Part shown: piece after piece, positions 7,764-18,427 of the stretch
How positions within the stretch are numbered: the first letter of the stretch is position 1
How the letters are laid out: every line of letters starts with the position of its first letter
Origin: Candidatus Thorarchaeota archaeon
GTDB lineage: Archaea; Asgardarchaeota; Heimdallarchaeia; Hodarchaeales; Hodarchaeaceae
DNA: 32,000 nt
Reading direction: 5' to 3'
Assembly: GCA_048882505.1 (NCBI GenBank)
Contig: JBHLRO010000001.1
Location: 360,001-392,000 of the forward strand
Notes under the pieces: generated by a model
Told to the model about the DNA's origin: nothing
The model's input: only the letters and a program-made list of their open reading frames with translations
Database searches by the model: none
Translations under genes and position numbers: made by a program

Positions 7764-8417
7764 ATGAAGGCAAAATGTATGGCAGATCTCCTCCTCTGTA
7801 CCAACGAACCTGATATTCTTGCCATGTATCTCGAACAAGAAGATCATACAATCGTCCGCAAGGCATTGAAAGGGCGTGATTTTGAGGGGGCCACCATTAT
7901 TGGGGAGATCAAACGTAAGGGCGACCTATTTCGCTCCATCCAGGATCGACGGTACATCAATCAGATGAAACGGATGCGCGAGTCCGGAAAACGCCCTTTC
8001 GTGATTCTTGCCGATGTCATTCGAGATGAACGATATCGTCTGGAGCCCGTTTTGGGTGCCCTCTTAACTGCGGCCTTCCATTATGGGGTGACCCTCATTC
8101 CTGTTCCGAATAATGAGCAAATCATTGCCTGGGTGATTCATAAACTCCTTACGGACATTGAGGGCCAGACCCCGAATCCCAATCGGTTTCAAAGCTATGA
8201 CTTCACCCCAAACCTCCATCAAAATATTACTGTCAATATGTTACGGATGATCCCCGGGGTCGGATTACGACGGGCCATCACCGTTGGCACCAAATATCCC
8301 AGCATCGTGGCGATAGGTAATGCCCCCCTCACTGACCTCCAAGCGCTCGAAGGTATTGGCCCGAAATTGGGTGCCAAAATCTTGCGTGCTATCACGCAGG
8401 GGACGCTTCAGGAGTAG
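7764..8417 (+). CDS. ERCC4/XPF-type structure-specific nuclease with tandem HhH
   Basis: RDF...EIKRKGDL (variant of GD-x(n)-ERKxxxD), RRYINQMKRM, and C-terminal (HhH)2 IPGVGLRRA / LEGIGPKLG. Confidence 0.85.
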   Translation: MKAKCMADLLLCTNEPDILAMYLEQEDHTIVRKALKGRDFEGATIIGEIKRKGDLFRSIQDRRYINQMKRMRESGKRPFVILADVIRDERYRLEPVLGALLTAAFHYGVTLIPVPNNEQIIAWVIHKLLTDIEGQTPNPNRFQSYDFTPNLHQNITVNMLRMIPGVGLRRAITVGTKYPSIVAIGNAPLTDLQALEGIGPKLGAKILRAITQGTLQE

Positions 8418-10300: not shown

Positions 10301-11056
10301 CTAATAATGGTTAAACAAGAATTTTTTATCAATATATTGATTTATAAATGTCTGCAACAAAAAAAGGCCGAGATGAACACCAATAATAGATATTGCATCA
10401 ATAAAAAGCGGATGATATTCTTGAAATAAAGCCCAGTTCAGAAGATTGTTCCAGAAATGGATTACATAACCTATAGAAGCCCCATATATTAATAGAAAGA
10501 TAATTCTCATTCTTTTTTGATTTTTGATTAGTAGAATTCTCGATTGATTTATACACAATATTGAGAAAAATATACCAGCAATGAAAACTGGTAAAATTCG
10601 GAAAGTCTCATGAATGAGAGCCCAATTAAAACTTGAAATTACTATAATTATCCCTAGCTTATAATCCTCAAATAAAAGTAAGACTCCCAGAAATATAAAG
10701 CTGAATATTAATGTGAAAAAACTACAGTCACTAGACAAATAATTCTGTATTCTTAAAAAGCTCATTCCGAATTCGAAATATACAGAAAGTATAAATGCCA
10801 TTCCCCAGTATATTTTTGTTTTTATTGACTCACCTTGAGCTATTTTATTAGTACTATAAACAGCTGTTAGGATACCCAAGTAGCGGTAGATAAACTCCTC
10901 AAATAATGGGGCGATGATAACAGATCTAGTAAAATTAGGTATCTGTTGTTGTTGATAATAAGGAGTAAGGTAATGTAATAATAAGGAGAGTCCAAATAAT
11001 CCTGAATAAACCCAAATTTTATCGATTTTTTCAAAGAATAAGATTCTTCTTGTCAT
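10301..11056 (-). CDS. CPBP (CAAX/Abi) family intramembrane glutamic endopeptidase
   Basis: APLFEEFIYR (EExxxR), FNWALIHE (FxxxH-like) and IHFWNN (HxxxN) motifs; multi-TM; AT-rich. Confidence 0.8.
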   Translation of the reverse strand: MTRRILFFEKIDKIWVYSGLFGLSLLLHYLTPYYQQQQIPNFTRSVIIAPLFEEFIYRYLGILTAVYSTNKIAQGESIKTKIYWGMAFILSVYFEFGMSFLRIQNYLSSDCSFFTLIFSFIFLGVLLLFEDYKLGIIIVISSFNWALIHETFRILPVFIAGIFFSILCINQSRILLIKNQKRMRIIFLLIYGASIGYVIHFWNNLLNWALFQEYHPLFIDAISIIGVHLGLFLLQTFINQYIDKKFLFNHY

Positions 11057-12308: not shown

Positions 12309-12833
12309 ATGGATAGCAACCTAAGGACAACTCAAAAAGCCTTTTCTGATCTAAAGGACATGATTCACAAGGTGAAACGAAGGAGAATCTACTCCAAAAC
12401 TTTTGAAAATGAGGTCAGAACGATTTTTGACCGTTTTCACATTATTGTTACTCAGACTCAAAGTCTTTCCTCCTTTTACAACGCACAATTCCCTGATCGA
12501 ATGCCTATGGATTGGTATAATCAAAAAGGGGGCAAATATTTCGCGGATGAGGATTTTGATTCCGATGATTCTTACTATACTGATGATGATGACTTTTTAA
12601 AATTCTTATTTCAGGAATTGAAGAACGAACTTGAGAAATGTGAGTTGGTAGTCAAAAATGCCCTTTATGAGTTGGAGCAATTGAGACAAAAGCAAGTACA
12701 ATCTCTACCAAATGCAAGACCAACAGGACGAATTCCAAAAAAAGCGCAACCTAAGCTCATTTTTCCAACTCGTGAAAGGCAAGATTTAGCTCCAGAAAAA
12801 AAGGTGGAACAGAATATTCAAGAAGGAATTTAG
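12309..12833 (+). CDS. Hypothetical helical protein (possible N-terminal part of a frameshifted fusion with 12871..13989)
   Basis: 174-aa ORF with an acidic patch DEDFDSDDSYYTDDDDF; A7 run at 12796-12802 near its 3' end. Confidence 0.7.
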   Translation: MDSNLRTTQKAFSDLKDMIHKVKRRRIYSKTFENEVRTIFDRFHIIVTQTQSLSSFYNAQFPDRMPMDWYNQKGGKYFADEDFDSDDSYYTDDDDFLKFLFQELKNELEKCELVVKNALYELEQLRQKQVQSLPNARPTGRIPKKAQPKLIFPTRERQDLAPEKKVEQNIQEGI

Positions 12834-12870
12834 CACCAGCACTCAAGTTATCGATCTACGCAATGAAGGA

Positions 12871-13989
12871 TTGATAGAGGTCGATCTATCCCAATTATTT
12901 GATTGTAAGCAGCTGGAAATAATCAACCTTGAGGGTAACCCGCTGAAACAAGTGGATATTGGGGGTTTAAGACAATGTCCGATGTTAACTTCGGTCAAGG
13001 TCGATGAAACGGTAGATCTTTTTATTGGTGGATCCCTTGGTCATTTAACAATTCATGTTACGTCCCTTTTTCAGCATAACTTACAAGCAAATTACAACTT
13101 GAGAGGGATTTTACTAAAGCACTTGAAACGTAAGATCAAAGCCAGTAAAATTACGCCAAAGGACTTTTCGAATCTTCAATTACCACTTATGGAATTGATA
13201 ACCAATTGGGAGGTACTAACCAATCTAAATGGGTATAGAAACCCCGAACTAAGTGATGCCATCGAAATCTTAGGAGAAGAATTTCCATCCTTTCTAGCCC
13301 CTGCTTATCACTTCAACCAGTATCTCAACTACCTGTCTCAAGATGTTGCAGAATTTGGCAGAATATTACCAATAAGGCACATCGTTCCATTTAATGCTGT
13401 TGGTAAAGCAACATTAAATAGTAGTTTACTTCTAATAGAATTTGAAGACACCTTGATATCCCTTAAGATTGCACTAGATAGGTTTGTTCGCGTGTTGATC
13501 AAGTTTTTTCCAGCGGCTAAAGGGACTACATTTGGAGGAATCAATAAGAAGGAGAAATCCAGGGGTTTTATGAGTGAAGTAGTCCGAGGAAAGGAAGGAA
13601 AACGGACGGGGAAAAATGCAGCTACTTGGTTCATTTCAACATACATTTATGACCAGTACTTTGATTGGATTCAGGATGTTGTTATACCCCGAGATGAACT
13701 AATACATTACTTTGGGGCTCTCCTTCAATATAAAGAAATAGCGAATGTCAATCTGGATCAAAAAACACTCCTTTCAACCCAACATTGGGTGAGAATCCGA
13801 AAAAAGACACAAAATGAATTAGATCTGGATGCCAACGAAATTCTCGTAACTACTGACCAAATTAGTGGGTACGTTACGAAGTGGTATGAATTCTTCTTCT
13901 ATCTCCTCAAATATCTACCTGGTAAAAGACGCTGGGAGTTGGAACACACAAAAAATCAAGAACAAAGCAAAACTGAACAAGCTGAATAA
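12871..13989 (+). CDS. Short LRR module fused to a putative HEPN RNase domain
   Basis: LRR units (IEVDLSQLFDCKQLEIINLEGNPLKQVDIGGLRQCPML plus cap TSVKVD). Helical C-domain with EFEDTLISLKIALDRFVR and W...V..PRDELIHY (Rx4H, 13690-13707). The frame is open from 12790. Confidence 0.65.
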   Translation: MIEVDLSQLFDCKQLEIINLEGNPLKQVDIGGLRQCPMLTSVKVDETVDLFIGGSLGHLTIHVTSLFQHNLQANYNLRGILLKHLKRKIKASKITPKDFSNLQLPLMELITNWEVLTNLNGYRNPELSDAIEILGEEFPSFLAPAYHFNQYLNYLSQDVAEFGRILPIRHIVPFNAVGKATLNSSLLLIEFEDTLISLKIALDRFVRVLIKFFPAAKGTTFGGINKKEKSRGFMSEVVRGKEGKRTGKNAATWFISTYIYDQYFDWIQDVVIPRDELIHYFGALLQYKEIANVNLDQKTLLSTQHWVRIRKKTQNELDLDANEILVTTDQISGYVTKWYEFFFYLLKYLPGKRRWELEHTKNQEQSKTEQAE

Positions 13990-14215: not shown

Positions 14216-15136
14216 CTACGAGAGGATCCGGGAAAGCAACTCAATAAAGAATTGATAGTCTCTCAGAATTATTGCGATCAAAAGAGATAAGATGGTTTTT
14301 TTCGGCATTTTGATCGAGAAATCGTTTTTTACGAATACTGGGGGAGAAACATACTCAGGTTTATGAGGATACGTCTTGCTAGAATAATAGGAATTTATCG
14401 CATCCCTAAATCTCTTTCTTTGAAGGAGATTTTTCATGTAAACCACCAACAAGGAAAAATCGAATAGTATCGGAAAAAAAAAGAAAATTAGTAGTTCTAT
14501 ATCAAAGATTAAAGTTTTGTGAAGCTTTAGGTAGTAAACAAGTAACCACAAAGATAACACGAGCCAAATAGGCGCCAATTGGGCCGTTTTTATCTTATTA
14601 TTGAAGAACTGTTTTTTCTTTTTGTATGAGTCCATTGATATTACAGCTTCATTCTCTTTTAGAGAAAAATGGTGATAAGCAATGATGAAAATCCCACAGA
14701 AAAAATAAGCAAATGTTATGACCCATATTAAATCATAAAAAATAATAAAAACAAATGCATCAACCCCATATAAGGATTTCATGGCTATAATACCATCATA
14801 TATGGAACTTCCTTCAACGAGCACTCCATAATATAATGGAAGGGAGAATGAAAGGAAATTAGGGAGAAATAAGAAAATAATCATAATTGTCGGAATTATT
14901 GTTATAAATAAGCCTGGTAAAACAATAGAAAATATAAATGACGTCAATTGGTATGTCTGTTCTTTGTCTTTTGCGATCCAGTTATCATAATCAATATCAT
15001 ATTCAATATAGTTCCTGTATGAAAATGCGCGCAAATCTCTTATCAAGGAATAGCTTTTATTTCTGATTGACATTATCCATTTCCTAAATCTTGAGTTCTT
15101 CATGGACAATTCGGCTGTCCTCCTGACTATCATCAT
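14216..15136 (-). CDS. Hypothetical multi-pass membrane protein
   Basis: 306 aa with about 4-5 hydrophobic segments; AT-rich cassette. Confidence 0.7.
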   Translation of the reverse strand: MMIVRRTAELSMKNSRFRKWIMSIRNKSYSLIRDLRAFSYRNYIEYDIDYDNWIAKDKEQTYQLTSFIFSIVLPGLFITIIPTIMIIFLFLPNFLSFSLPLYYGVLVEGSSIYDGIIAMKSLYGVDAFVFIIFYDLIWVITFAYFFCGIFIIAYHHFSLKENEAVISMDSYKKKKQFFNNKIKTAQLAPIWLVLSLWLLVYYLKLHKTLIFDIELLIFFFFPILFDFSLLVVYMKNLLQRKRFRDAINSYYSSKTYPHKPEYVSPPVFVKNDFSIKMPKKTILSLLIAIILRDYQFFIELLSRILS

Positions 15137-17929: not shown

Positions 17930-18427
17930 ATGTGGTTTACTCAATTAGGATGGGGAGCCCCAGTCACAGGAATTTTCTGGGACTATGAGAACGTTCCCCT
18001 CCGGCATACCGACTGGGAGGACTTTCTGCACGGCTTGAGAGCCTATGTGAATAGTAATCAGGTGATTTTCGCCCGCGTCTACGTACGGAAGGCCACCCTG
18101 CCTATCAAAGATCGTGAGCTGATCAATGCCCTGAATATCTTTGATTATAAATGGATCCGCAAGGATGATCCTAATGCCGCCGATTATTCCCTGATTCAAT
18201 CCTGTCTGGATGTCCTAAAGATTCATTCCCAAATTAACCATGTGCTTCTCGTCTTTGGGGACGCAGATTTTCTCGAATTGACTGATCAGCTTCACGAATG
18301 GCAGGTAGCTATCAGTTTGATCTGCCAGTCTCGCAATTATAGTGAGGATTTGCGATCCGAGGTGCACTACGCATATTCGGTTCATTTCGTGGCGAGCCAT
18401 CCCCAGGATTGGTGGCTATATCGGTAA
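17930..18427 (+). CDS. NYN-domain (PIN-like, LabA/limkain-b1 type) ribonuclease
   Basis: GIFWDYENVP, NAADYSL, LLVFGDADF and YSEDLRSEV motifs carry the conserved acidic tetrad. Confidence 0.88.
   Translation: MWFTQLGWGAPVTGIFWDYENVPLRHTDWEDFLHGLRAYVNSNQVIFARVYVRKATLPIKDRELINALNIFDYKWIRKDDPNAADYSLIQSCLDVLKIHSQINHVLLVFGDADFLELTDQLHEWQVAISLICQSRNYSEDLRSEVHYAYSVHFVASHPQDWWLYR

Follow-up and report, generated by a model that had tools for sequence, protein, structure and literature searches.

A gene of an Asgard archaeon that joins a collapsed leucine-rich repeat protein to a HEPN-like family

Among described HEPN proteins, the Cthe_2314 type (PF18730) was found without fusions and without a conserved operon partner in the survey of Anantharaman et al. 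2013 (PMC3710099). ApeA (PF18739) is a single-protein anti-phage tRNA anticodon nuclease (bioRxiv 10.64898/2026.01.26.701840), which carries a beta-rich N-terminal domain of ~300 aa and forms doughnut-shaped oligomers activated by deoxydinucleotides (PMC3710099; bioRxiv 10.64898/2026.01.26.701840). Animal HEPN proteins of the DZIP3/hRUL138 type carry LRR, NACHT and death-fold domains as fusion partners (PMC3710099), and are the only combination of LRR and HEPN that we found described in the literature.

The gene studied here lies in an archaeal stretch of 32,000 nucleotides, called the window throughout, and joins leucine-rich repeats (LRRs) to a HEPN-like C-terminal domain (module 2). The family of module 2 resembles Cthe_2314 in that both are stand-alone, about 250 aa long and mostly bacterial, and in that R-[N/D]-x3-H stands in the late part of the sequence, behind a helix that carries a conserved Asp. 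Unlike Cthe_2314, it is missed by Pfam PF18730, has its own APAYH, TTFG and GFM motifs and, in the predicted model, carries a beta-hairpin insert after the R-[N/D]-x3-H motif. With ApeA it shares the pattern of a single-gene candidate effector without a partner gene, and a hydrophobic helix followed by R-N/D-x3-H-Y that can be aligned; unlike ApeA, it has helices or LRRs ahead of the core and no beta domain of ~300 aa, and its Pfam scores stay under the cut-off. The DZIP3/hRUL138 type, which is set beside the gene by description only, differs in belonging to another HEPN family, in being eukaryotic and in its multidomain, STAND-like build. In contrast to NLR/STAND sensor-effectors, the gene has no central ATPase: Pfam, NCBIfam and PADLOC gave no NACHT/NB-ARC-type domain between the repeats and the effector. 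The closest relatives of its N-terminal part are small all-LRR proteins (L008, L009, L011-L013) with a homologous N-cap, 22-24 aa repeats (I/V-D-L-S-x-L-x-x-C), C-cap and basic tail. Where those proteins carry about 7-17 repeats without an effector domain, the gene here has two repeats and a 280-aa enzyme-like C-terminal domain.

Architecture and the LRR module

The initial annotation described an open reading frame at 12871-13989 with R-D-x3-H at 13690-13707, and both were found exactly there, R274 being encoded at 13690-13692 and H279 at 13705-13707. Its description of a capped mini-LRR followed by a helical C-domain also agrees with our BLASTP and Pfam LRR matches and with a helical AlphaFold2 (AF2) model. 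Read from its sequence, the gene is a two-module fusion of a collapsed LRR protein and a full copy of a family without a name, and in the alignment the LRR tail passes straight into the C-terminal family domain. The parts are as follows.

12871-13989, + strand: open reading frame with a TTG start, 372 aa
About 12802-13146, + strand: module 1, made up of LRR N-cap, two repeats, C-cap and basic tail
12802-12870, + strand: LRR N-cap and start of repeat 1, in frame with the open reading frame and upstream of its first ATG, GTG or TTG; conserved in the orthologue
12847-12984 (12847-12912 and 12913-12984), + strand: two leucine-rich repeats of 22-24 aa, from Pfam, tblastn and BLASTP to true LRR proteins
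12985-13146 (C-cap 12985-13032), + strand: LRR C-cap and basic tail, from BLASTP matches at the C-termini of L008, L011 and L013
13147-13986, + strand: module 2, a full-length copy of the HEPN-like family, residues ~93-372 (280 aa)

Searches of Pfam, NCBIfam and PADLOC gave no match for the whole protein, in line with the earlier statement that no named system has such an architecture, and PADLOC returned nothing meaningful for 58 members of the C-terminal family. The only close homologue is a protein of 418-422 aa with 71% identity, encoded on a JGI metagenome contig by the gene that also occurs in G004, a genome of the same genus (hereafter the orthologue).

On 12790-13150, Pfam LRR_8 scored 20.6 bits (E 3.8e-4), under its 27-bit cut-off because only two repeats are present, and LRR_4 gave E 0.017; for LRR-only proteins of the class, LRR_8/LRR_4 reach E 1e-14 to 1e-46. 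Residues 1-50 match many true LRR open reading frames of related genomes by tblastn. The first 125 residues of the orthologue match LRR proteins of the class at both of their extreme ends, N-terminal and C-terminal (BLASTP, E 1e-9 to 2e-12 in a small database), so the module consists of an N-cap, two repeats and a C-cap. It is thus a complete, though collapsed, LRR protein and no fragment. The likeness of its basic tail to those of the class's small LRR proteins was judged by eye.

We compared the window copy with the orthologue and obtained the following Ka/Ks values.

12802-12870 (23 codons), N-cap ahead of the TTG: 0.20
Residues 1-56, LRR and C-cap: 0.08
Residues 57-125, tail and linker: 0.15
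Residues 126-290, HEPN-like core: 0.32
Residues 291-372, C-terminal part: 0.41

The LRR and C-cap are the most constrained region of the gene, and the LRR stub, being under the gene's strongest purifying selection, would therefore be functional.

Small LRR-only proteins with the N-cap, 22-24 aa repeats, C-cap and short basic tail in common are abundant in this archaeal class, with 41 matches in one genome. On contig C40 of the window's own genome, a 507-aa open frame (L003:467-1987) has LRRs followed by a C-terminal region of ~270 aa without a Pfam match; it may be another LRR fusion.

The C-terminal family and its relation to HEPN domains

An exhaustive HMMER search of 1.84 billion representatives returned 57 homologues of the C-terminal family at E<1e-3, including 16 at E<1e-10. 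Before it, a word-index search and the genomes of relatives had given no homologue of the C-domain beyond the orthologue; a word-index search with the family profile gave 4 proteins in all, and a PDB sequence search with that profile gave no match. All 57 homologues are 165-367 aa long and none has an LRR. The family consists of stand-alone proteins of 250-300 aa in 57 clusters, bacterial wherever the organism is named; the named members come from Chryseobacterium, Emticicia, Runella, Salinivirgaceae, Paenibacillus, Bacillus, Fictibacillus and Lysinibacillus (Bacteroidota, Bacillota).

Loci of named homologues were retrieved with a 12-sequence subset of the family. No common neighbour gene was found across ten homologous loci (L019-L027 and L014, the last a duplicate of L025), so the family is a solo gene. 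As for a type II toxin-antitoxin arrangement, no conserved adjacent antitoxin gene was seen at these ten loci or between the two archaeal loci. At L014:6933-9185 (= L025), the genes after the Bacillales homologue P0060 encode an HTH_3 protein of 65 aa, a protein with a faint DUF559 match and an Nmad3 protein, a neighbourhood that looks mobile or defence-like, though it is absent from the other loci.

In a 58-sequence alignment, L202, D203, T220, Y263, W266 and R274 are invariant (58/58), and K199, R204, G222 and H279 are kept in 57/58, the lone exception at H279 being a truncated sequence. Position 275 is D in 51 sequences and N in 7, and Y280 is kept in 55/58. The two stretches singled out earlier, E.E..L.S.K.ALD and W..DVV.PRDELIHY, turned out to be the family's two most conserved helices. 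The initial annotation had regarded the Rx4H motif as meaningful and proposed its conservation in homologues as a check; R-[D/N]-x3-H is indeed kept family-wide, with the counts just given for R274 and H279. Further invariant family motifs are TTFG, GFM and APAYH, which to our knowledge do not occur in any HEPN family. The main conserved elements are located as follows.

13297-13311, + strand: APAYH motif, conserved (P144 kept in 53/58) and in the predicted dimer interface
13459-13482, + strand: helix motif S-L-K-x-x-L-D-R (K199, L202, D203, R204), kept in 57-58 of 58 and aligned with the LLDKLG helix of Cthe_2314 HEPN
13687-13710, + strand: P-R-D-E-L-I-H-Y with R-[D/N]-x3-H (Rx4H), a putative catalytic site whose R and H align with ApeA and Cthe_2314

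The C-domain had been called HEPN at the outset, and the results bear on this in both directions. In its favour, the motif is invariant and the polar D or N after the Arg (D51/N7) fits the HEPN rule. Against it, no member of the 58 reaches any Pfam HEPN cut-off. HEPN_Apea (PF18739) gives weak matches in 6/58 members (best E 0.0034), and the match that we inspected, which spans the motif, scores 13.5 bits against a cut-off of 24.4 bits. HEPN_Cthe2314 (PF18730) has no match at E<=0.1 in the 58 members and missed the family genes in five bacterial genomes at E<=10. We built domain alignments of ApeA and Cthe_2314 from genomes with true members, the ApeA sequences coming from Bacteroidota, since a search of 251 genomes of the phylum with PF18739 gave no match. 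With hhalign, the family aligned to ApeA with a score of 28.9 (P 0.0012), R to R and H to H, against 24.8 for the best of 60 column shuffles, and to Cthe_2314 with a score of 24.8 (E 0.011) across 84 columns over the Asp helix and the motif helix, against 17.6 for the best shuffle, the reported probability being low in both cases. ApeA and Cthe_2314 aligned to each other with only 15.7, below both family scores. These profile links to HEPN families depend largely on the motif itself.

With the 58-sequence alignment, AF2 gave a helical model with a pLDDT of 76.7 and a pTM of 0.75, mostly >90 over residues 100-290, as against a pLDDT of only 40.7 with a 3-sequence alignment. In searches of predicted structures, the best match was an Atlas cluster named Cthe_2314-like HEPN (TM 0.74 by target, 189 residues, rmsd 3.4), followed by DUF8310 and, more weakly, Abi_2; language-model features agree with this search, giving the same two names. 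DUF3644, another structural lead here, overlaps a HEPN family (PMC3710099). Among solved structures, Foldseek of the model against the PDB had no match at E<=0.001, and other searches returned generic helical bundles, two VIA searches being dominated by rhodopsins and GPCRs. The HEPN assignment is thus backed by the motif and by the profile and predicted-structure links, while Pfam cut-offs stay unreached and solved structures add only helical-bundle noise.

On this evidence the C-domain probably belongs to the HEPN superfamily. The family could instead represent some other sort of helical protein or enzyme, in which R-x4-H is convergent or structural. In favour of this, no curated HEPN model is reached, PDB searches give generic helical bundles, and the family has extra invariant motifs of its own (TTFG, GFM, APAYH). 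We nevertheless consider it unlikely, for the invariant R-[D/N]-x3-H-Y obeys the HEPN rule for the residue after R, two independent HEPN profiles align on the motif, that of Cthe_2314 also on a second helix, and the top predicted-structure match carries a HEPN name.

An AlphaFold model of the dimer had been proposed as a way to see whether two Rx4H motifs form a composite site. Two copies of residues 95-372 were predicted to pair symmetrically with a score of 0.71, against 0.00 for the best of 3 controls; this mark is reached by 20/30 proteins solved as pairs and by 1/23 solved as single chains. Three runs share at least 50% of contacts, and the partner pLDDT is at least 68. Confident contacts fall in residues 106-114, 138-147 (the APAYH stretch) and 178-197, the last being the first half of the long helix that bears K199, D203 and R204. 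A symmetric homodimer is thus predicted, but the two Rx4H motifs (residues 274-279) are not among its confident contacts.

The start of the gene

The open reading frame called earlier does exist from the TTG at 12871, but its start is doubtful, as the conserved N-cap at 12802-12870 lies upstream and the LRR frame is open from 12790. The following features bear on the start.

12787-12789, + strand: in-frame TAG that closes the LRR frame upstream
12796-12802, + strand: A7 run where frames 0 and +1 overlap
12309-12833, + strand: upstream 174-aa ORFan in frame 0, with a 44-nt overlap with the LRR frame; given a +1 shift, it might form an N-terminal part

The N-cap codons have a Ka/Ks of 0.20 and were therefore translated during most of the time since the two copies diverged. 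In the orthologue, ATG starts lie upstream of the N-cap, and the codon at the position of the window's TTG is CTG; in the window, the positions of the orthologue's ATGs read AAG or are missing. The start may thus reflect recent 5' damage with use of the TTG, a +1 fusion, or a non-canonical start.

In the first reading, which we hold tentatively and regard as somewhat unlikely, a rearrangement at ~12805 replaced the original start of the window copy, so that the TTG at 12871 would give a truncated product or there would be none. It would account for homology to the orthologue that begins abruptly at 12805, for the AAG or missing codons at the ATG positions and the CTG at that of the TTG, and for the in-frame TAG at 12787, TAG being the commonest stop in the window and PylD not above cut-off. 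The 372 downstream codons are intact and under purifying selection, which speaks against damage, although Ka/Ks from two copies cannot date a recent loss.

In the second, the window copy is a fusion of ~560 aa with the upstream 174-aa frame, made at the A7 run by a +1 ribosomal shift or by slippage of the transcript. It is at this very run that the two frames overlap, and a second assembly (depth 29) bears out its sequence; the N-cap ahead of the TTG is conserved, and by eye an AT-rich box and a purine-rich stretch stand ahead of 12309 with none ahead of 12871. Set against this, the orthologue has no such upstream frame and starts at its own ATG, the 174-aa frame has no homologue in 61 relatives or in a 5.8 G protein set and is absent from the orthologous locus, and an A7 run is short for slippage. 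The 174-aa frame and the neighbour in G004 have no more in common than six identical residues at the start, a likeness that is not significant. We consider such a fusion quite unlikely.

Simpler accounts were rejected. An assembly error at the A7 run is ruled out by an independent Logan contig at depth 29, probably from the source sample, which is identical there with no indel. A reading of TAG as pyrrolysine disagrees with TAG ending 12/28 open reading frames of the window and with the lack of a PylD match above its cut-off. A -1 shift at the dnaX-type slippery heptamer A-AAA-AAG (12795-12803, in frame 0 of the 174-aa frame) would lead into the wrong frame for the LRR gene.

Distribution, possible function and neighbourhood

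Among 83 genomes of the class, the family profile was positive only in G000, the window's own genome, and in G004, and among 301 genomes of the phylum it was positive in 3, one of them with a fragment. The fusion of LRR and HEPN-like domain is thus rare, being found in two genomes of one genus: the proposed survey of Asgard genomes did turn it up in a second genome of the same genus, but found none further in the 301. The fragment, a 109-aa open frame at L055:1309-1638 (- strand) of genome G1108, covers just the C-terminal half of the family with the motif region, and seems to be a remnant of the family in another Asgard genome. The earlier view that the source is probably an Asgard archaeon is plausible from two EAP30 (ESCRT-II Vps22/36-like) matches above the Pfam cut-off (G000:C11:40140-40778 and G000:C18:9163-9549). 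Given its near absence from other Asgard genomes, the family was probably gained by transfer before joining an LRR gene already present there; a union of a host LRR gene with an acquired gene is thus the likely origin, and the direction of transfer is one that we infer.

As to function, the core of module 2 (K199, D203, R204, T220, Y263, W266 and R274-[D/N]-x3-H279-Y280) would fit a very divergent HEPN domain. We infer a HEPN fold and RNase activity, with catalysis that would depend on the dimer: module 2 may be a metal-independent RNase, active as a symmetric dimer, with the role of a toxin or conflict effector. For the LRR stub, the most likely role would be that of a small surface for protein binding, by which the enzyme is recruited or held back. 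For the gene as a whole, we lean slightly towards a fusion of an LRR stub, still functional, with an acquired divergent HEPN domain that works as a dimeric RNase toxin or conflict effector.

A stronger proposal is that the gene encodes a sensor and an effector in one polypeptide, in which a viral or foreign ligand, once bound by the LRR, would set the HEPN RNase free, similar to NLR/TLR proteins or RNase L. The extreme constraint on the LRR stub (Ka/Ks 0.08) and the position of an effector-like domain directly behind the LRR are consistent with it, and ApeA provides a precedent for HEPN defence by a single protein with a sensing domain (bioRxiv 10.64898/2026.01.26.701840). However, two repeats make a very small LRR, the fusion is limited to two genomes of one genus, PADLOC and the comparison with the G004 locus give no defence context, and the bacterial homologues work without any LRR. 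Such LRR gating and an immune function are therefore conjecture, and in our view doubtful. Still less likely, we think, is the wider idea that an Asgard lineage built a one-polypeptide sensor-effector from its own LRR scaffold and a horizontally acquired bacterial HEPN-like RNase, within a broader Asgard habit of joining LRRs to immune effectors.

Because eukaryotic innate immunity has LRR-effector fusions as its hallmark, examples from archaea are relevant to the origin of this design. If the enzyme assignment of module 2 is true, there is a further HEPN family without a database name, present as solo genes in Bacteroidota, Bacillota and other bacteria, a copy of which an Asgard archaeon took up and joined to a minimal LRR. 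If the sensor-effector reading is true as well, LRR-effector immune logic would have been explored in archaeal relatives of eukaryotes. The case is limited to two genomes, two repeats, a locus without defence context and a window copy with a doubtful start.

The surroundings of the gene do not bear out the earlier claim of an island with other nucleases or defence genes. Nucleotide similarity between the window and the G004 locus begins abruptly at 12805 and ends at 13977 with unrelated flanks, and no neighbour gene is common to the two; nor is any neighbour conserved at the bacterial loci. PADLOC gave no credible match in the window, only weak ones for NYN (E 6e-4) and, to a coiled-coil open reading frame, for SspC/Cas8a (E 4e-4 and 4e-3). 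An ERCC4 gene with an HhH tail (7764-8417) is presumably an ordinary archaeal repair nuclease of the XPF/Hef type, and besides it the NYN gene at 17930-18427 is the only nuclease-like neighbour.

The 9-18 kb part of the window consists mostly of ORFans without family matches; between 9111 and 17577, open reading frames of 345, 251, 237, 174, 306, 123, 288 and 271 aa have no match in Pfam, NCBIfam or PADLOC. In the G004 locus, ~0.8 kb downstream of the orthologue, a 129-aa open reading frame (L007:3379-3768, - strand) shows an HNH-like Cys/His pattern and has no counterpart in the window. Two AT-rich open reading frames of the window, at 10301-11056 and 14216-15136, look like multi-pass membrane proteins, one of them with a weak match to an Rce1-like CAAX protease (E 0.08).
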